Positions 11,281 to 19,615 of a stretch of DNA of 64,000 bases are shown piece after piece (within the stretch, counting starts at the first letter, position 1; each line of letters begins with the position of its first letter). The DNA comes from a bacterium (GTDB lineage: Bacteria; UBA8248). The translations under genes were made by a program, and so were the position numbers. Location: the NCBI GenBank assembly GCA_965203325.1, contig OZ241875.1, forward strand, positions 1,184,001 through 1,248,000, in the 5' to 3' direction. The notes beneath the pieces were generated by a model. The model ran no database searches. It was not told the origin of the DNA and saw nothing but the letters and a program-made list of their open reading frames with translations.

Positions 11281-13110
11281 CTACACGAACAAAATGCCGT
11301 AGCGATACCTCCGGTCGATCCACCACGCCGTGCAGAGGGAGAACCCCGCCAGGAGCGCGAGCCCGCCCGACTGTGTCCAGGTGCCCACGAGCAGCGCCCC
11401 GACCAGGAACATCAAGGCGAAGACGAATACGCTCAAAGCCAGCCACAGACCCGCGAGCGCTGATATGGGCGCCGAACGCGCGTCCGGCCCTCGCACCCGG
11501 CCCCATGCGCCCGGCGGATGCACCCTCGTCCAGAAATTTCGCAAAACCTCCGCCCGCGCGGGCCTCGTGATGAAGGTGACTATCAGCATCGCCGCGAAGC
11601 CGACGCCCACCTCCGCGGCCAGCAATACGGGAAATGCGGGCGGTACCCCATCCCAGTGGAGATAGAGGGCGGTCGCGCCCGCGGCCAGCATTCCCGAGAT
11701 TTCCGTCCAGGCGTTCGCGCGCCACCACAGCCAGCGCAGGATCACCGGAAGCCCCAGCCCCGCACCGAGCGAGATGTGGAACTTCCACGCTACCTCGATG
11801 CTTTTGATTTGCCCCGCCACGGCGAAGGCGCCGAGCGCCATGATCAACACGCCCAGGCGGCTGACGAAGACGACTTCGCGCGCGCCCGCTCCTTTTCTGA
11901 TGAAGCGCGCATAAACGTCGTTCACCAGATAGCTCATCCCCCAGTTCAGGTGCGTGTCCACCGTGCTCATGAACGCGCCCAAAAGACCCACCAACACGAG
12001 GCCGAGAACCCCCGCCGGCAGAAGTTTCTCCATCAGGAGGGGATAGACCGCCTCGCGGTCAGCGAGAATTTTCGCCTCCATCGTGCCTGGGAGAACGTCC
12101 ATGCCCTTTGGCACGAGGATCAGGCTCACCAGACCGATGAGTATCCACGGCCAGGGCCTCAGGACGTAGTTCCCGACCGTGAAGAGGAAAGCGCCCGCCT
12201 GGGCGTCCCTCGGCGTGCGCGCCGAGCACAGCCTCTGGCCGATGTAGCCCCCGCCGTCGGCGTTGTTGTGCGCCCACCAGACCACGAACAGATAGATGAG
12301 GATCACCTGTGCCCCCGCCCATCCCGCGCCCTCGGGCGGCAGGAAGGAGAGAACAGCCGCCGCGCCCTCCGCGCCGTAAATCTCGCCCAGCTTCGCGCTC
12401 ATGCCCGAGAGCCCGCCCACCGCTTCGACGGCGTACCACGCGAACAGGCAGCTTCCGGCCATCGCGATGACGAACTGGAACAAGTCGGTGAGCATGACGC
12501 CGCGGATCCCGCCCGCGCTCGCATACGCCGCTATCATCAAGACGAGCAGGGCGACCGTTACGCTCTCGTTCACGCTTCCCATCGTGAGGACGGCGGGCCA
12601 GTACGCCTCGACGGCCGTCCACAGGTTTTGGGGCAGAATCTCCTCCCATCTCAAGAAGGGCTCGGCGATCTTCGCCATGGCGCGGAACACCCAGCCCAGG
12701 ACGATCAGGTTCACGATGAGGGAGGAATAGACGGCCTTGAAGCCGCGCAGGAATGCGCCGGGGCCGCTCCCGTAGCGCAGTTCGATGAGTTCGGCGTCGG
12801 TCACCACGCTCGCGCGCCGCCAAAGAGGGGCGAAGAAGACCGCGACGCCCACGTTCCCGATGACCCACGCCCACCAGAACCAGTTTCCCGAAATCCCGCG
12901 CTTGGCGACGATGCCGGCCACGACGAGGGGTGTGTCCGAGGCGAACGTGGTCGCCACCATCGAGGTGCCTATCCACCACCAGGGCAGGCTGCGCCCGGCC
13001 ACGAAGTATGAGGCCAGGCTCTTAGACGCCACTCGCGAGGTGAGAACACCGACGAGCAAGGCGAAAACGATGTAGCCGAGAATGAGCGACCAGTCCAGAG
13101 TCGAGAGCAT
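11281..13110 (-). CDS. Sodium:solute symporter family protein
   Basis: MLSTLDW start; YFVAGRSLPWW, SMVATTFASDTP and AFMSTVDTHLNWG motifs. Confidence 0.93.
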   Translation of the reverse strand: MLSTLDWSLILGYIVFALLVGVLTSRVASKSLASYFVAGRSLPWWWIGTSMVATTFASDTPLVVAGIVAKRGISGNWFWWAWVIGNVGVAVFFAPLWRRASVVTDAELIELRYGSGPGAFLRGFKAVYSSLIVNLIVLGWVFRAMAKIAEPFLRWEEILPQNLWTAVEAYWPAVLTMGSVNESVTVALLVLMIAAYASAGGIRGVMLTDLFQFVIAMAGSCLFAWYAVEAVGGLSGMSAKLGEIYGAEGAAAVLSFLPPEGAGWAGAQVILIYLFVVWWAHNNADGGGYIGQRLCSARTPRDAQAGAFLFTVGNYVLRPWPWILIGLVSLILVPKGMDVLPGTMEAKILADREAVYPLLMEKLLPAGVLGLVLVGLLGAFMSTVDTHLNWGMSYLVNDVYARFIRKGAGAREVVFVSRLGVLIMALGAFAVAGQIKSIEVAWKFHISLGAGLGLPVILRWLWWRANAWTEISGMLAAGATALYLHWDGVPPAFPVLLAAEVGVGFAAMLIVTFITRPARAEVLRNFWTRVHPPGAWGRVRGPDARSAPISALAGLWLALSVFVFALMFLVGALLVGTWTQSGGLALLAGFSLCTAWWIDRRYRYGILFV

Positions 13111-13240
13111 GCGCACGTCTCTACGAATGGGCGGGCTTCGGGCGCATCCTACAGGGAAAGACAAGAAGATGCGATACGGCAGGCCTTGCGTCCCGACGCA
13201 GAAACGTCCCGCAGCGCGTGCGGGGCGCTTCACCCAAAAG

Positions 13241-13389
13241 AAAAACCTCCTCCCGTCTCCGGGAGGAGGCTCTCGCAGGGAGTAGATGCGAGATGTATGA
13301 TTGCGTGGCGGAGGAGCGCCGACCCAATCAGCGCTCCTCGCGCCGGCCGGTCGGGGCGTGCCGCCTAAGAACGCCCCGACCGGCATTTC
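13241..13389 (-). ncRNA. Putative structured RNA, copy 1 (sRNA or attenuating leader)
   Basis: Four hairpins ending in CCTCCTCCCG-GAGA-CGGGAGGAGG-TTTTT; paralogue at 18661-18810. Confidence 0.7.
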
Positions 13390-13399
13390 CTGTATCCAA

Positions 13400-13415
13400 G
13401 GCAAGCGCCGCGCCG
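13400..13415 (-). promoter_or_regulatory. Sigma-54-like -24/-12 promoter
   Basis: Minus strand CGGCGCGGCGCTTGCC (GG-N10-GC), at nearly the same distance from the RNA as in copy 2. Confidence 0.55.
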
Positions 13416-13492
13416 TGTTGCTCAAAAGATGCGCGCGCCTGCTTCTCGGCCCGCCGGGCACCGCCCGCCCAACCGGGTCGGCGGGCGCCGGT

Positions 13493-14626
13493 TTAGCGGG
13501 CGACGAAGTTCCGGTGCACCCAGCGGTCGTTCCCGCGCCGGACTTCCATGTAGAACGACTCGCTCGCCTTGCGCGTCTCCAGGTTCAAGCCGCCCGGCAT
13601 CGCTCTCAAAGCGGGCTTCGCGGCGCGCGCGGAATCGATGAACGCGGCGACCTCGGCGAGTGTGGGCCGTATGCGTCTGTGCGCGCCTTTTTCGGCAATG
13701 GCCTCCGTCGCCGCCGCCTTGAGCTGCCGCTGCCACAGCTTGCGGAACAGGCCGGTGCTCTCGAATTCATCGCCGCTGTTGATCCGGCCGTTCACCGCGA
13801 AGACATAGCCCACGGCATCCGGATGCTTTGCCGACAGTCCACCCAGGGCTTTTTCATAGTCCGCCACGGCGGACGCGAGGCGCTTGTTCTCCAATGACAA
13901 CTGGAGGCTCGAACGCGAGCGTTCGTCGGCGACGCGCGCACGCACGGCCCGGCCCAACCCCTGCTGTGTCATCGCGACCGAGCGCCACACTTCGCCCTGA
14001 AGAGATGCGCCTCTTCGCCGCCGTATCCTCCCCAACCTTCCGCTCCAAACGGCTTCGGGAGCGGTCTCGCGCCCCATGCTTTTCATCATCGCAATCTTGC
14101 CGGCTCTCGAAGGCATGCGGTATGCGGAGGTCGAAAACGCCATCACATTCTCCAGGCCGCGCCTGGCCCACCTGCCCTGCTCCACGCAAAACGCGCCGAT
14201 GGGGATGTAGCCCGACTTCGGGGGGACGAGCAGGCTGGTGAGCAGGACACGGTCCTGCTTGCCTCCCTTGACGATGTCCCCCGACTGGATGAAGACCTCG
14301 CGATCGCCCAGGTTGCGGACCTTGAGGCGGCCGACGCTGCCGGTTTCGACGACCTTGACGAGGCCCCGCCTCATCGCCTCGCCCAGGGTGATCGGCGCGG
14401 GGCCTTCGCTTCGGCCTTCGCGGTGAATCAGATAGATGGAGAGATTGTTCTGCGTGTAGGGGCCGCTCAGGCGGTAGTCCTTCCCCGCTGTAGCATTGGC
14501 AGTCGCCGGCGGTAGCCCGATTGCGACCGCGCAGGCGAGGAGAACGGCGACGCCACACGCCCGGAACATTCTCGATGCAACCCGCGCCCTGCGGGCCGGA
14601 CGCCCTTCTAAAGATCTGATGTGCAT
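13493..14626 (-). CDS. Exported ARPP-1/DUF6569-like protein
   Basis: Signal-like segment; GDIVKGGKQDRVL and FCVEQGRW motifs; family assigned from recall. Confidence 0.65.
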   Translation of the reverse strand: MHIRSLEGRPARRARVASRMFRACGVAVLLACAVAIGLPPATANATAGKDYRLSGPYTQNNLSIYLIHREGRSEGPAPITLGEAMRRGLVKVVETGSVGRLKVRNLGDREVFIQSGDIVKGGKQDRVLLTSLLVPPKSGYIPIGAFCVEQGRWARRGLENVMAFSTSAYRMPSRAGKIAMMKSMGRETAPEAVWSGRLGRIRRRRGASLQGEVWRSVAMTQQGLGRAVRARVADERSRSSLQLSLENKRLASAVADYEKALGGLSAKHPDAVGYVFAVNGRINSGDEFESTGLFRKLWQRQLKAAATEAIAEKGAHRRIRPTLAEVAAFIDSARAAKPALRAMPGGLNLETRKASESFYMEVRRGNDRWVHRNFVAR

Positions 14627-14952
14627 GATTTTCCCTCCCCGATCGCTCAATCCCGGCAGCGCAATCTCTTCCATATCGCTCAACAAGCGGCGTTGCCGTA
14701 CATTCTCGTACGGCAGCCGCTTCTCGTATTTCTTTATTTCAGCCTATCTAGGAGTTATGACGGGGCCGGGTTCCACCTGTGGAAATTACGGGTTGCGACG
14801 GAATGACGAGCATAGGCAAAAGGGAACGGGGGTTTTGTTTTGTAGGGACAGGTCGCGACCTGTCCCTACGGTGGAATCCCGACCGAGAGGAGAATTGTCG
14901 AAAAAGCCCCCTTGTCAGGGGGTAGAGGAAACACCCCTCTCGACTGGAAAAG

Positions 14953-15101
14953 CAACCCCCCCCCTACCCCCCCCTTGTCAGGGGTCAAACGCGAGTGATG
15001 AACGAGCGTTTGCATAAGCCATTGACGAGAAACACATCGTCTTGCAAAACCTCCCTCTTCGGTCGGTTTTGACCCCTGACAAGGGGGGGTAGGGGGGGTT
15101 G
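14953..15101. mobile_element. MITE-like element with ~35-bp terminal inverted repeats
   Basis: TIR CAACCCCCCCTACCCCCCTTGTCAGGGGTCAAA; near-identical inverted copy at 23027-23172; related TIRs with a different core at 21744-21855. Confidence 0.8.
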
Positions 15102-15245
15102 TCTTTATGGGATTTCCCTCTCAGGGGGTTTTTCAACAACCCCATGAGGGGAAGTATTTTTCTATCGCAACCGTCGACGCAAAAACGCCCCGCAGCGCGT
15201 GCGGGGCGTTTCAGATGGAAGGATATTGTGCTCGGTGCCAGTCGT

Positions 15246-17492
15246 CTAGCCCTGGCTTCCGTTCGTCTTGAGGCGTCCCAGCACCTCCAGGACGTGGTCC
15301 GGCGTGATGGGGATGCGCGTGAGGCGCGCGCCTATCGCCTGTCCCGCCGCGCAGGCCACCGCCGCGGCCGCCGCCGTGCAGGGGGGTTCGCCGATGCCCT
15401 TGGCCCCGTAGGGCCCCAGGCCCTCGCCGGATTCCAGGATGACGTTGTCCCATTCGGGCGTGTCCACCGAGGTGGGGATGAGGTAGCCGTGGAACTCGTT
15501 GTTCAGGAGCGCGCCCTTTTGCGTGAGGACCTCTTCGGTCAGGGCGTGGCCGACGCCCATCATCGCGCCGCCCTCGAACTGGCCTTCCACGTGCTGCACG
15601 TTGATGGACTGGCCCACGTCGTGGCCCGACCAGTAGTTGAGCACGCGGAGTTCGCCCGTATCGACGTTCACCTCGACTTCCGCCGCGTGGATGCCGAACA
15701 CGTAATCCATCCAGCCGCCCGCGTCGCCGTACTGCTCGTTACCCTCGTATTCGTGGACGCCGAGCTTCGTCTTGCCCACGGCGTGGAGGTCGATACCCAT
15801 CTTCCTTGACTGCGTCACGGCTTCGGCGAAGGAGACATCGCGCTCTTCGGCCGCTTTCACGTACACCCGGCCCTCGCGGATATCCAGGTCCTCAGGGTTC
15901 GCTTCGAGAAGTTCGGCGGCGCCCTTCAGAATTCTGTTCTTGAGTTCCGCCGACGCCCGGTAACACGCGCCGCCCGAGATCATCGTCTGGCGCGATCCTG
16001 CAGTGACCCCTACCAGCGGGGTGACGTGGGAGTCCGACATCGTCACCGTCACGTCCTCGAGCGCTATTCCTAAGGCTTCCGCCGCAATCTGGCGGTTCGT
16101 CTGTGTCTGGCCCGCGCCGACGTCCGAAGCGCCGGTGCGCACGCTCACGCTGCCGTCCTCATCAATGCCCACATAGACTTCGCCCTCGTTCCTCGGCCTT
16201 CCGTATCCGCCGACGTTCCCGATGATCCCGACGCCGACGCGCCAGGGGCCGTGGTCTTTTTCGGGGACGCGGCCCGCCGAGCGGCCGATGAGCTTTTTCG
16301 TTTCCTCCGCCAGTTCGGGCAGCATCACGCGCGTGGGCACGGGCTGATTCTGGATGAGGGTCTGGCCCTTCGCGATGAAGTTTCTCTCGCGGAACTCGAG
16401 CGGGTCCATCCCCAGCCGCTCCGCGAGTTCATCCATCTGCGCTTCGTAGGCGAAACACACCTGGTTCGCGCCCACGCCGCGCATCGCCTCGGTGAAGGGG
16501 TTGTTCGTCCGGACGGCGCGCGAGCGGCCCCGCGCGTTGGGTATCTCATAGGGTCCCGCGCTCACCACGAGCGCGCCCAGCAACAAACCCTTGCTGTTGG
16601 CCGTGTAGCCACCCGCATCGCCGATGATGTCGACTTCTATGGCGGTGAGTTTCCCGTCCTTCGTCGCGCCCGTCCTGTACTTCATGACGAAGGGATGCTT
16701 CTTGCTGCCAGTGTTCATGGTCTCCTCGCGCGAGTAGGCCATGCGCACGGGCCGCCCCGTCCGGATCGACAGGAGCGCCATGAAGGCGCCGAGCAGCGGG
16801 TGCTCCTTGCCCCCGAACGCTCCGCCCAGCATCGGGCAGTCATACCGCACGCGGCTGAGGGGGAGGCCCAGCGTCCGCGCCACGTTCTGGTAGTTCTCTA
16901 TCATCTGCGTGGGCACGCGGATGTTCACCACCCCCCGCTCGTCCACCCAGGCGACGCCGCCTTCGGGCTCGATGAAGGCGTGATCCAGACAGGCGGAGAA
17001 ATAGGTCTTCTCGACGATAACGTCCGCCCCGGCGAAGCCCGCCTCCACGTCGCCCTTGTCCGCCTTCCAGTCGCAGACCACCTCGCCCTCTTCGAGTGTG
17101 GCGAAGTCGTAAGCGCCCGGCAGCGGCTCGTAGACGACGCGCACGAGCGAGGCCGCCTCTTCAGCCAGGTCCCGCGTGTCGGCGGCCACGAGGGCGACCG
17201 CGTCGCCGATGTCGACCACGAGGTCTTCGGCCAGCACCGGGTAATCGGGATAGCGGCCCGCGTTCAGGCCGGGAATGTCCTTCGCCGTCAGGACGCAGTG
17301 CACGCCGGGCAGAGCGAGCGCTTCCGTCGCATCAATCTCCACGATCTTCGCCGGCGTCATCGTGGCGCGGACGGCTTTCCCGTAAATCTCGCCCGGCATG
17401 TGGAAGTCATCGCCGTAGACCGTGTCGCCGACCGCCTTCGCCAGGGCGTCTTCTTTCGTCGGCGACGCGCCGACATGCGTCATCTGAGCCAT
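15246..17492 (-). CDS. Xanthine dehydrogenase-family molybdopterin-binding subunit
   Basis: GGAFGGK, AMRGVG, GAGQ, TAGSR, GQFEGG and GAKGIGEP motifs. Confidence 0.93.
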   Translation of the reverse strand: MAQMTHVGASPTKEDALAKAVGDTVYGDDFHMPGEIYGKAVRATMTPAKIVEIDATEALALPGVHCVLTAKDIPGLNAGRYPDYPVLAEDLVVDIGDAVALVAADTRDLAEEAASLVRVVYEPLPGAYDFATLEEGEVVCDWKADKGDVEAGFAGADVIVEKTYFSACLDHAFIEPEGGVAWVDERGVVNIRVPTQMIENYQNVARTLGLPLSRVRYDCPMLGGAFGGKEHPLLGAFMALLSIRTGRPVRMAYSREETMNTGSKKHPFVMKYRTGATKDGKLTAIEVDIIGDAGGYTANSKGLLLGALVVSAGPYEIPNARGRSRAVRTNNPFTEAMRGVGANQVCFAYEAQMDELAERLGMDPLEFRERNFIAKGQTLIQNQPVPTRVMLPELAEETKKLIGRSAGRVPEKDHGPWRVGVGIIGNVGGYGRPRNEGEVYVGIDEDGSVSVRTGASDVGAGQTQTNRQIAAEALGIALEDVTVTMSDSHVTPLVGVTAGSRQTMISGGACYRASAELKNRILKGAAELLEANPEDLDIREGRVYVKAAEERDVSFAEAVTQSRKMGIDLHAVGKTKLGVHEYEGNEQYGDAGGWMDYVFGIHAAEVEVNVDTGELRVLNYWSGHDVGQSINVQHVEGQFEGGAMMGVGHALTEEVLTQKGALLNNEFHGYLIPTSVDTPEWDNVILESGEGLGPYGAKGIGEPPCTAAAAAVACAAGQAIGARLTRIPITPDHVLEVLGRLKTNGSQG

Positions 17493-17518
17493 CGTATCCT
17501 CCTGAATATCCCCAAAAG

Positions 17519-18517
17519 CTATCCGCGCAGGGCCGCCACGTCCACCACCTGACCCGTCGTTGCGCTCTGGACGACCGCCTCGAGTACGGCGACCACTTCA
17601 ATGCCCTCGGGCCCGCCGGTCTCGGGCGTCGCCTCGCCCCGGATGCACTTGCAGAACTCGTCCATCTCATCCGCCAGGGCGTCTCCGCCCACGACCTCGA
17701 CTTCCGTTCGGGCTTCCTCGCCCACCTTGGCCACGTAGAGCTTTCCGCCTTCCTCTTCGCTGTAGGCCCTCATCTTCGTGCCGAAGGCCGCCGTGTCGCA
17801 TATCTTGGGAACCACGAAGGAAGAACCGATGTGGCCGAGCGGGCCGCTCTCGTATTCGATGATGATGCTCGTCGCATCATCCAAATTCGTCTTGCCGAGC
17901 AGCTTCTTGCTGAAGGCGGCCACCCGCTTCGCGGGTCCGGCCAGGTATTGCAGGTTGTCGATCATGTGGACGCCCAGGCCCGTCATGGAACCGGCGGGAC
18001 ATTCGGCGGGGTCGTTGCGCCAGCCCGGCCTGGATTCGAAGCCCATGGGAAGCGAGAGGTTCGCCTCCACCTGATGCACCACACCCAGTTCGTCATTATC
18101 TATCATCTCGCGCATCTTGCGGTTCGCGCCGAAGCGGCGGCGGTGATGGCCGACTTGCAAGGTGACGTTCGCGCTTGAGGTCGCTTCGTGCGCCTTTTTG
18201 GCCTCATCGACGGTGAGCGTGAGCGGCTTTTCGACGAAGACGTGCTTTCCGGCCGATGCGGCCGAAGAAATCATGTCCAGGTGCGTGGAGTGGGGCGTCG
18301 CGACGATGACGCCCTCCACCTCGGGGTCGTTCAATAATTCGTCGAGGCTGCCCGCCGTCCGGCAACCGTGTTTCTCGGAAAACGCCTTGCGGGCGTCCTC
18401 GCTGCGCGCAAAACCCGTGACCACCTCGCCCGAACCGCTCCGGTTGAGCGCCTCCACCAGAACGCCGCCCCACCAGCCCAGCCCGATAGAGGCGAGGCGC
18501 ACCTTGTCCGTAGCCAT
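17519..18517 (-). CDS. Gfo/Idh/MocA oxidoreductase
   Basis: IGLGWWG, VATPHSTH, GKHVFVEKP, GVHMID. Confidence 0.93.
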   Translation of the reverse strand: MATDKVRLASIGLGWWGGVLVEALNRSGSGEVVTGFARSEDARKAFSEKHGCRTAGSLDELLNDPEVEGVIVATPHSTHLDMISSAASAGKHVFVEKPLTLTVDEAKKAHEATSSANVTLQVGHHRRRFGANRKMREMIDNDELGVVHQVEANLSLPMGFESRPGWRNDPAECPAGSMTGLGVHMIDNLQYLAGPAKRVAAFSKKLLGKTNLDDATSIIIEYESGPLGHIGSSFVVPKICDTAAFGTKMRAYSEEEGGKLYVAKVGEEARTEVEVVGGDALADEMDEFCKCIRGEATPETGGPEGIEVVAVLEAVVQSATTGQVVDVAALRG

Positions 18518-18660
18518 TTTTCGACTCCTTAATCACTGAATGGATGAATTTTCAACATCGAATATACGCCGAGTGATTTCACTTGGGCCGCACCATAACC
18601 CAACATCGCCCGCTTGAAAACCGCGCCGGAAGAAATTGGTCCGAATAAAAGCCCGCCAAT

Positions 18661-18810
18661 AAAAAACCTCCTCCCGTCTCCGGGAGGAGGCTCTCGCAGG
18701 GGGTAGATGCGAGATGTATGATTGCGTGGCGGAGGAGCGCCGACCCAATCAGCTACTCCTCTCGCCGGCTAACCGGGGCGTGCCGCCTATGAACGCCCCA
18801 ATCAGCTTGC
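18661..18810 (-). ncRNA. Putative structured RNA, copy 2
   Basis: Same four-hairpin layout and terminator as 13241-13389, with pairing-preserving changes in stem 1. Confidence 0.7.
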
Positions 18811-18820
18811 TCTTATAATA

Positions 18821-18836
18821 TGCAATAGCTGTGCCA
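18821..18836 (-). promoter_or_regulatory. Sigma-54 promoter
   Basis: Minus strand TGGCACAGCTATTGCA matches TGGCAC-N5-TTGCA; AT-rich tract upstream. Confidence 0.8.
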
Positions 18837-18982
18837 TTTGCATGGAATTAGAATATGCCTTATTTTTCAATCAGATAATAATATATACGTTCGGTCAAAT
18901 TGTCATTTTGTCACGATATGTCCGGCGAAAACGACAAATCGTCATGGCGGAGAATCATATTTCAGGTGGAAATTTCCTGTTT

Positions 18983-19615
18983 TTACCTCGAAGTGGGCGA
19001 TTTTTCGGGAAAGACGTCGAACGCCTCGGACACGGCGGCCTTCATCTCATCCCCCTGGGAGAGGGCCGTCGTCGCGCGGGCCCCCGATACCCACAACGCC
19101 TCCAGGGAGCCCAGGTCGATCAGGCGTATTTCCACACTGGCGACGCACACTTCGACGTCTTCGCAGGTGCGCTCTCCTCCGGCGATCACCACCGCCTGCG
19201 CGCCCGAACGCTTAAGCGCCCCCAGATGGACTTCGGCGATTCCACCCGCAGCGTCCAGCAGATCCTCCGCCTTCGTTTTTGCCAGCTTCTCCGGCCAGCG
19301 AAGCGCCAGATAGCCCTTGGCGGCAAGGGCGTCGCGTAGCAAGAAGGCGCCCTCCACCATCTCGATTTTTTTCACATCGGGCGCCTTGAGCCCCGCCTGC
19401 GCGTAGACGTCGCGGAAGAGGCCCGTCCAGTCGCTCGGGTAGCGAAACGGAGCGACGACGACCCGCTCGAGCGCCCGTATCCGCCCCGGCCTGACGACGC
19501 CTTGCATCGTCGACACCTCATAGGCGCAGGCCGGAATCATCAGGAGCATAAAAACGATCAGAGAGGATCGAACCCGCGATGCGAAGGCGTTTTGTTTCAC
19601 GATCCGAGGCTCCAT
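18983..19615 (-). CDS. Hypothetical lipoprotein
   Basis: Hydrophobic segment ending IPAC; host-like codon use; start uncertain. Confidence 0.55.
   Translation of the reverse strand: MEPRIVKQNAFASRVRSSLIVFMLLMIPACAYEVSTMQGVVRPGRIRALERVVVAPFRYPSDWTGLFRDVYAQAGLKAPDVKKIEMVEGAFLLRDALAAKGYLALRWPEKLAKTKAEDLLDAAGGIAEVHLGALKRSGAQAVVIAGGERTCEDVEVCVASVEIRLIDLGSLEALWVSGARATTALSQGDEMKAAVSEAFDVFPEKSPTSR

Follow-up and report, generated by a model that had tools for sequence, protein, structure and literature searches.

The small RNAs (sRNAs) GlmY and GlmZ are paralogous, depend on sigma-54 and on GlrR, an activator of the NtrC family, and combine a structured 5' module with a divergent, single-stranded 3' part; one of the two acts through a protein rather than by pairing. 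C-rich, Hfq-independent sRNAs of the anti-Shine-Dalgarno type include RsaE/RoxS in the Firmicutes and the CcsR or 'cuckoo' RNAs of the alpha-proteobacteria, which carry CCUCCUCCC. In the nasF leader of Klebsiella, a sigma-54/NtrC promoter is followed by a terminator controlled by NasR. The Qrr RNAs of Vibrio are Hfq-dependent. Qrr1-5 have their own sigma-54 promoters, sites for the activator LuxO and intrinsic terminators, and exist as several paralogues (10.1101/2021.07.01.450815, PMC3730234, PMC11407668). We have analysed two related RNA elements, designated copy A and copy B, in a 64,000-nucleotide (nt) stretch of bacterial DNA (GTDB lineage Bacteria; UBA8248; assembly GCA_965203325.1, contig OZ241875.1, positions 1,184,001 to 1,248,000), which is called the window below. 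The original prediction, made from the letters of the window alone, had proposed either an undescribed, enhancer-controlled sRNA pair or a termination switch.

Copies A and B are members of a real, conserved RNA gene family that occurs in one family of uncultivated marine bacteria. The presumed pair of sigma-54 RNAs is one sigma-54 gene, copy B, plus a recent promoter-less insertion, copy A. On balance, we favour the reading that the RNA is an independent, enhancer-controlled sRNA forming a transcription unit of its own. It is a new RNA family joining the known sigma-54-dependent sRNAs (Qrr, GlmY/Z), and not a new mechanism. With the Qrr genes it has in common a sigma-54 promoter, predicted activator sites upstream, an intrinsic terminator and paralogous copies. 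The likeness extends to the circuit, in that the activator's regulon appears to be made up mostly of sRNA genes; here two non-coding loci have a similar enhancer layout. Unlike Qrr RNAs, which are about 100 nt long, the present RNA has about 150 nt and four hairpins (P1, P2, P3 and a terminator); its enhancer is of the form TGAC-N5-GTCA and not the LuxO box; no hfq was found, and the activator gene is not adjacent. With GlmY/GlmZ the RNA shares the combination of a conserved part, P1-P2, and a variable 3' part, but it gives no Rfam match, comes from another phylum and has no link to glmS, and copy A lacks a sigma-54 promoter. Likeness to the C-rich sRNAs rests on UCUACCCCC in the P3 loop, CCUCCUCCC in an arm of the terminator, CU-rich stretches elsewhere and a host in which no Hfq was detected; here, however, CCUCCUCCC stands in a stem and not in a loop, the promoter type differs, Rfam gives no match, and no enrichment of complementary ribosome-binding sites was shown among 2997 start regions.

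The source genome is a single contig of 4.39 Mb that is 95% complete. Both copies lie on the minus strand and align without gaps over about 137 nt (approximately 13377-13241 and 18798-18661) with 93% identity, while the DNA flanking them is unrelated on both sides, as had been claimed. All strings quoted in the original prediction were found at the minus-strand places that it gave. Each copy forms four hairpins, the last of which is a terminator followed by a tract of five to six U. The minimum free energy is -102.1 kcal/mol for copy A and -85.8 kcal/mol for copy B (z = -9.9 and -6.4, 200 shuffles), and none of the 200 shuffles folded as well. The base of P1 differs between the two copies (GCCGGUC/GACCGGC versus GCUGAUU/GGUUAGC) with the pairing kept, an earlier observation that both sequences and folds bear out. 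The predicted start of copy B, position 18810, was counted from the C of the -12 element at 18822 and agrees with the start assumed in the original prediction; its predicted end was taken from the terminator. The ATG of the symporter gene (13110) lies 131 nt past the last U of copy A, and that of the gene for a Gfo/Idh/MocA oxidoreductase (18517), called Gfo below, 144 nt past copy B; same-strand genes had been announced at 130 to 145 nt. Coordinates are collected in Table 1.

A BLAST search of the own genome gave two strong matches, the other 37 listed having E values of at least 0.18, and the covariance model described below gave two as well. The element is therefore not a dispersed repeat. 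Elements of the repetitive extragenic palindrome (REP) or miniature inverted-repeat transposable element (MITE) kind have many copies, whereas two were counted here in 4.39 Mb and one or two in relatives; the dozens of promoter-less copies that would mark a simple repeat did not appear. When the whole 64-kb window was scanned with Rfam 15, no family matched at gathering thresholds (Qrr RF00378, GlmY/GlmZ, RsmY/Z and ar14 included), and in E-value mode all matches were sub-threshold, the best being anti-hemB (25.7 compared to 49.5 bits), over P3 and the terminator only. On this evidence the RNA is undescribed, as had been suspected. A small open reading frame (ORF) inside the RNA was also considered and rejected on inspection, since the length variants among homologues are not multiples of three.

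Table 1. Coordinates in the window of the two RNA copies, their control elements and the neighbouring genes
Feature	Position	Strand	Remarks
RNA copy B (ancestral), ~150 nt	18661..18810	-	P1 18806-18768; P2 18766-18728; linker 18727-18715; P3 18714-18692; terminator 18691-18667; U-tract 18666-18661
RNA copy A (derived)	13241..13384	-	P1 13384-13346; P2 13344-13307; linker 13306-13294; P3 13293-13271; terminator 13270-13246; U-tract 13245-13241
Sigma-54 promoter of copy B, TGGCACAGCTATTGCA	18821..18836	-	-24 GG / -12 GC; canonical and conserved
Predicted enhancer site 1, TGACGATTTGTCG	18932..18944	-	TGAC-N5-GTCR palindrome; ~110 nt upstream of the -24 element
Predicted enhancer site 2, TGACAAAATGACA	18901..18913	-	most relatives have TGACAAAATGTCA; distance to site 1, 31 nt
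AT-rich block, TATCTGATTGAAAAATAAGG	18858..18877	-	between enhancer sites and promoter
GG-N10-GC string of the original prediction, CGGCGCGGCGCTTGCC	13400..13415	-	unconserved in orthologous copy-A loci
ARPP-1 terminator hairpin, CGCCCCGCA-CGCG-CUGCGGGACG	13194..13232	-	pre-existing; directly after copy A
Sigma-70-like promoter, TTTTCA-N17-TATGGT	18592..18620	-	between RNA terminator and Gfo gene
Gfo/Idh/MocA oxidoreductase (Gfo)	17519-18517	-	Pfam; operon 15246..18517
Xanthine-dehydrogenase-family molybdopterin subunit (XDH)	15246-17492	-	Pfam; intrinsic terminator near 15185-15205 ends the operon
Sodium:solute symporter	11281..13110	-	Pfam SSF, E = 1.5e-31; downstream of copy A

Homologues were collected with BLAST from 60 relatives; 38 sequences were aligned (alignment A2), the P1-P2 part was cut out (A3), and a covariance model (R1) was derived. 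By BLAST the element was present in 30 of the 36 genomes of the family, all 22 of the genus being positive, and in none of the 24 outside it. R1 matched 37 of the 51 phylum genomes sampled, the own genome included: 36 of the 41 other family genomes, with 22 of 22 in the genus, compared to none of the nine genomes outside the family. The family genomes without a match were all four of a genus of small, 2.1-Mb genomes and a single 87%-complete genome. Building such a model and searching the genome and its relatives, as had been suggested, thus brought out a family-wide RNA, with one or two copies in each carrier genome. The titles of public records that contain the RNA name Nitrospinota, Nitrospinaceae or 'Candidatus Tectomicrobia' metagenome-assembled genomes. 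A 19-base pattern found 46 stretches in 185,579 species genomes; 10 of the 23 examined were true homologues, and the remaining 13 were chance matches in coding sequence (Emticicia, actinobacteria and others). A metagenome scan yielded 23 stretches, six of which matched R1, all six in the same gene context.

Over 35 distinct P1-P2 sequences, 96.4% of the cells held standard pairs, compared to 35 to 56% when the partner was slid by one to three columns. Changes on both sides were seen in 10 of 30 P1-P2 pairs, and the observed values were reached by none of 500 shuffles. Compensatory pairs numbered 9 of 13 in P1, where nearly the whole signal resides, and 1 of 17 in P2. In the genus alignment (A5, 28 sequences), where 97.9% of cells were paired, the corresponding counts were 6 of 13 for P1, 0 of 17 for P2, 2 of 7 for P3 and 1 of 10 for the terminator, which covaries across genera too. 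The 13-nt P1 loop, UUCWUAGGCGGCA, and most of the 17-bp P2 are invariant in seven genera, as are 37 of the 99 columns of the P1-P2 alignment as a whole. A tertiary contact of GGCGG in the P1 loop with CCGCC at the base of P2 is possible. P3 is confined to the genus. From P2 to the terminator, homologues differ in both length and fold; this part is pyrimidine-rich throughout, even where P3 is missing (for example CAUCCUCCUCCUUAC, CUCUCUCUCU and UCUCCCCCC). A paralogue in genome G030 likewise keeps P1-P2 and has a different 3' part.

The promoter of copy B, which follows the consensus TGGCAC-N5-TTGCW with its exact spacing, is conserved with the RNA. Among the 32 loci other than copy A (one duplicate contig was dropped), a match to TGG[CT]A[CT]-N5-TTGC was found 12 to 20 nt ahead of P1 in 31; in the 32nd, that of genome G014, the promoter lies about 75 nt further upstream, on the far side of a partly duplicated P1 5' half. 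The strict sigma-54 consensus has three matches in the 4.39-Mb genome, and the copy B promoter is one of them. The two palindromes further upstream are conserved as well: site 1 is kept as (C)ATGACGATTTGTCG in the block CATGACGATTTGTCG in all aligned genera, the second copy of G030 included, and site 2 corresponds to the conserved alignment block GTGACAAAATGTCAATTT, about 75 nt from the -24 element. In a genome-wide scan for such palindrome pairs 25 to 45 nt apart, the pair at copy B was the sole result. The AT-rich block, TATCnnnTTGA(T/A)AAATAAGG (aligned as TATCnnnTTGATAAATAAGG), is kept in the genus and partly beyond. A typical enhancer-dependent sigma-54 promoter has activator sites about 80 to 150 bp upstream, with an AT-rich region in between. 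The control region of copy B, with its two palindromes at about 75 and 110 bp, matches this layout and is predicted to be such a promoter, with the two palindromes as putative activator binding sites and the AT-rich block, by analogy, as a candidate DNA-bending or IHF-like region.

In G014 (loci L064 and L042), the partial tandem duplication lies about 75 nt upstream of the RNA. The order there is the sigma-54 promoter, a truncated P1-like hairpin (GCAAGCCGGCCGGAGCGUUCAUGAGAAAGAUGAACGC), about 50 unrelated bases and the complete RNA; a 5'-extended transcript is therefore expected in that species.

The proteins that such a promoter requires are encoded in the genome. One RpoN was identified (one Sigma54_DBD match, 202.9 bits), and rpoN is present in 49 of the 51 genomes of the phylum sample. 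There are two strong enhancer-binding proteins (Sigma54_activat, 238.8 and 234.2 bits, each with HTH_8), one a REC-AAA+-HTH response regulator encoded beside a PAS histidine kinase (C1:1337395-1338771) and the other a GAF-AAA+-HTH protein (C1:2847529-2849085); both fall under every NCBIfam equivalog cut-off. An orthologue of the NtrC-type protein (at least 71% identity) is missing in the four small genomes without the RNA, where the GAF-type protein is present, a co-absence that amounts to a single lineage and has two exceptions (G024 and G034). The activator gene is not adjacent to the RNA gene, the distance being 20 to 190 kb.

A third strict sigma-54 promoter (TGGCACGCATTTTGCT) was noticed 3.3 kb downstream of the GAF-type gene, at C1 ~2,852,253-2,852,388 (L144:6754-6889). 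Downstream of this promoter come an ORF of 73 aa, apparently for a small membrane protein, another of 180 aa and a gene of the RimK kind, the last assigned by Pfam. About 115 bp upstream of the promoter stands CGACAAATCGT, an 11-mer that recurs in inverted orientation in enhancer site 1 of copy B.

Only one other place in the genome has a similar enhancer and sigma-54 layout, at C1 ~2,929,584-2,929,990 (L151:3085-3490). There, around C1:2,929,597, TGACATTTTGTCA is followed at 33 bp by a degenerate second site (CGAAAAATCGTCA), and an AT-rich block precedes TGGCACGATTTATGCT. Downstream lie about 175 nt of highly conserved non-coding sequence, which contain hairpins, end in a terminator-like GGGGCAUG...CGUGCCCC and face a convergent HAD hydrolase gene. 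Of the 22 other genus members, 21 have kept the locus, as has one additional genus, and a comparison of it with Rfam gave no match. The locus probably encodes a further sRNA belonging to the same regulon. One might go further and imagine that the main outputs of the NtrC-family two-component system (or of the GAF-type activator) are these two unrelated sRNAs, in an independently evolved circuit of the LuxO/Qrr kind, and that P1-P2 docks a protein replacing Hfq; this is a tentative idea, with the odds against it.

The history of copy A is different. The ancestral copy always stands in the order M50B-like peptidase, 225-aa lipoprotein-like protein, RNA, Gfo, XDH subunit. Of the 23 genus genomes, five carry copy A (G000, G010, G011, G012 and G016), always between an ARPP-1-domain gene and the symporter gene, 5.4 to 7.3 kb downstream of copy B and on the same strand. 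Two single-copy genomes (G020 and G007) have an ARPP-1-symporter spacer that is otherwise the same, terminator hairpin included, and contains no RNA. Comparison with them places the insertion point between the ARPP-1 stop codon (13493) and the ARPP-1 terminator. The inserted segment begins at about -16 and stops where the U-tract ends; neither the -24 element nor either of the enhancer sites is there. At the position of CGGCGCGGCGCTTGCC, three of the four orthologous copy-A loci have a 3-nt deletion and one reads ACGGCGCTTGTC, and the genome-wide scan found no TGAC-N5-GTCA pair upstream of copy A, the pair at copy B being the only one. The string CGGCGCGGCGCTTGCC is thus probably not a working sigma-54 promoter. 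The claim of a sigma-54 promoter at each copy accordingly survives for copy B, where 31 of 32 loci have it in place and the 32nd further upstream, and is lost for copy A. In the same way, the 'enhancer-controlled sRNA pair' can be retained as an undescribed RNA with copy B behind a conserved promoter and enhancer sites, but not as a pair, copy A having been inserted without either. Copy A keeps all helices, partly by G-U pairs and compensatory changes. It may have kept a function, and the likeliest form would then be that of a 3' end to the ARPP-1 mRNA.

The ARPP-1 terminator is 92% identical over 39 nt to the terminator behind XDH (15175-15213), and neither has a similar sequence elsewhere in the genome; this points to the ARPP-1 gene having entered the locus behind XDH along with a terminator copy. 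In single-copy genomes the symporter gene follows XDH or ARPP-1 with no RNA ahead of it; in G001 it comes directly after XDH, and ARPP-1 is missing. In genome G006 (L147), what lies between the XDH and p224 homologues is a remnant of the symporter gene, its last ~58 codons (64% identical to residues 552-609); the RNA and Gfo-XDH are intact there.

For the independent sRNA that we favour, transcription, the identity of the activator, the trans-acting mechanism and the targets are inferred as follows. An activator bound to the two TGAC-N5-GTCA sites, some 75 to 110 bp upstream, would contact the sigma-54 polymerase across the AT-rich bend. Transcription of copy B would start about 5 nt before P1 and stop at the strong intrinsic terminator, giving an RNA of about 150 nt. 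This RNA would have two parts, a near-invariant 5' module made of P1 and the 17-bp P2, and a variable, pyrimidine-rich 3' part, that is, the linker and the C-rich P3 loop or, in other genera, an unstructured CU-rich stretch. The CU-rich part may act in trans by pairing with G-rich ribosome-binding regions of mRNAs, while the P1-P2 module may give stability or bind a dedicated protein. Copy A, if made at all, would be the tail of the ARPP-1 mRNA.

Several results weigh against this scheme. In two metatranscriptome runs (6% of sampled words), the contigs, in which small RNAs and repeats are lost, leave 13314-13727 and 18696-19100 uncovered, an outcome that settles nothing about transcription in either direction; one contig covers the 5' untranslated region (UTR) of Gfo up to 18550, with 44 unaligned bases beyond, and is a hint only. 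A target scan of the P1 loop, linker, P3 loop and linker plus P3 against 2997 crude start regions of one genome reached best z values of -3.8 to -5.0, nothing beyond chance extremes. The RNA's own Gfo 5' UTR was rejected as a target, the median z of the RNA 3' part being +0.38 over 31 loci. The most conserved part, P1-P2, is base-paired and offers no obvious seed. Searches of the 95%-complete genome for hfq, csrA and proQ found none of the three, so that none of the known RNA partner proteins is available as a candidate. Sequestration of the CsrA type was dismissed, since no csrA was found and the sole GGA in a loop, that of the terminator, is unconserved. Finally, the surroundings are constant: Gfo follows on the same strand 116 to 314 nt downstream of the RNA in 32 of the 33 loci other than copy A, all six metagenome homologues have the Gfo-XDH context, and copy A also has its same-strand gene downstream.

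This constant synteny is the main argument for a leader acting in cis, in which the sigma-54 promoter would serve Gfo-XDH and a ligand or protein on P1-P2 would decide on termination, copy A doing likewise for the symporter. It is classical for riboswitches that one element precedes a transporter as well as catabolic enzymes, and the near-invariant P2, with zero to one compensatory change in 17 pairs, fits a constraint from a binding partner or from two pairings; its GAGGAG is formally complementary to CUCCUC of the terminator. The nasF leader provides a precedent, having a sigma-54 promoter, a structured leader and an intrinsic terminator ahead of a catabolic or assimilatory operon. One metatranscriptome contig extends from the symporter gene as far as 13264 and so enters the repeat by about 24 nt, which fits read-through or DNA; a unitig must break inside the repeat in any case. 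The folds speak against such a switch. With the 3' arm of the terminator barred from pairing, or with the nascent prefix folded, P1-P2-P3 stayed unchanged and the 5' arm unpaired; no mutually exclusive antiterminator formed in either type of fold for either copy, the energy gap was 19.1 kcal/mol in both, and the pairing of GAGGAG with CUCCUC would need the 17-bp P2 to be opened. Unlike nasF, there is no two-hairpin hexaloop ANTAR motif over the terminator, no antiterminator, and a separate promoter downstream. This sigma-70-like promoter precedes a structured 5' UTR, and its pattern TT[TG]NCN-N16-18-TATNNT occurs in 28 of 31 spacers, compared to a mean of 0.8 and a maximum of 4 in 200 shuffles; it should be added, to the disadvantage of the independent sRNA, that the pattern was defined post hoc, after the alignment had been seen, and that the promoter falls under the threshold of a consensus scanner (8 of 12). 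In G030, the second copy (L055) has a perfect promoter together with both enhancer sites and its own terminator. Its neighbours are the gene of a thiamine-pyrophosphate enzyme and a convergent gene (GC3 = 0.91), which leaves nothing behind it that it could regulate in cis; this is the one locus where the RNA occurs independently of a same-strand downstream gene, the other 32 non-copy-A loci all having Gfo. In addition, copy A stands upstream of another terminator hairpin, ahead of a symporter whose upstream region is the same without the RNA in G020 and G007, and the other enhancer and sigma-54 locus is a non-coding unit facing a convergent gene. The termination switch of the original prediction is thus not supported, and a cis-acting leader in the wider sense seems unlikely to us.

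An RNA that sequesters or guides a protein would use the P1 loop and P2 as a platform and act through that protein rather than by pairing; GlmY and GlmZ, which bind RapZ, and 6S RNA, which binds RNA polymerase, are examples of RNAs with protein partners. The conservation of P1-P2 in seven genera (37 of 99 columns) goes beyond what folding needs, the paralogues keep this part and diverge in the 3' part, and the scans of the own genome and of the Gfo 5' UTRs gave no convincing mRNA targets, all of which would suit a platform. As Hfq, CsrA and ProQ were not found, any partner would be something else. Against this stands the neighbourhood, where the lipoprotein-like protein, the M50B-like peptidase and Gfo-XDH offer no linked partner gene, and the lack of the repeated binding motifs that sequestering RNAs usually carry; we regard this explanation as rather improbable. 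A non-functional repeat or mobile-element remnant that folds by chance could account for the insertion of copy A as a discrete segment and for the partial tandem duplication of the P1 5' half in G014. It can hardly account for one or two copies per genome, a single conserved syntenic position in seven genera, compensatory changes in three helices, or a conserved promoter and enhancer, and no inverted terminal repeats or transposase lie nearby. Copy number and covariation effectively refute it, and we give it almost no credence.

Almost nothing is known about RNA-based regulation in the Nitrospinota or in the uncultivated symbiont lineages so labelled, and among the papers listed by full-text searches none dealt with an sRNA of Nitrospina or Nitrospinota. 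The family described here would provide an sRNA gene present throughout a family with a fully readable control region, that is, two predicted enhancer sites, a candidate bend region and a -24/-12 promoter. As the genome has only a few sigma-54 promoters and two enhancer-binding proteins, the circuit is small enough for heterologous reconstruction, and it may give an entry point to whatever replaces chaperones of the Hfq type. The alignment and covariance model describe an RNA family that current Rfam-based annotation misses.

Some observations concern the neighbouring sequences. For the Gfo-XDH operon, all NCBIfam matches fell under the cut-offs. The Gfo 5' UTR (18520-18590, minus strand) contains conserved, covarying hairpins, for example CCGCAU-GCGAUC-AUGCGG versus CCAAGUG-AAAU-CACUCGG, and a conserved AAUUCAUCCAUUCAG ahead of the ribosome-binding site; the loop of its first hairpin (GMRAUCA) resembles the RNA linker GCAAUCAU in the same sense. 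The spacer between XDH and ARPP-1 (14700-15180, both strands) holds many short palindromes (CCCCCTGACAAGGGGG, CCCCTTGTCAGGGG). Its summed contig depth was very high, 536 and 285, in the two metatranscriptomes, with many loose ends, as would be seen for a widespread repeat or a highly expressed element.

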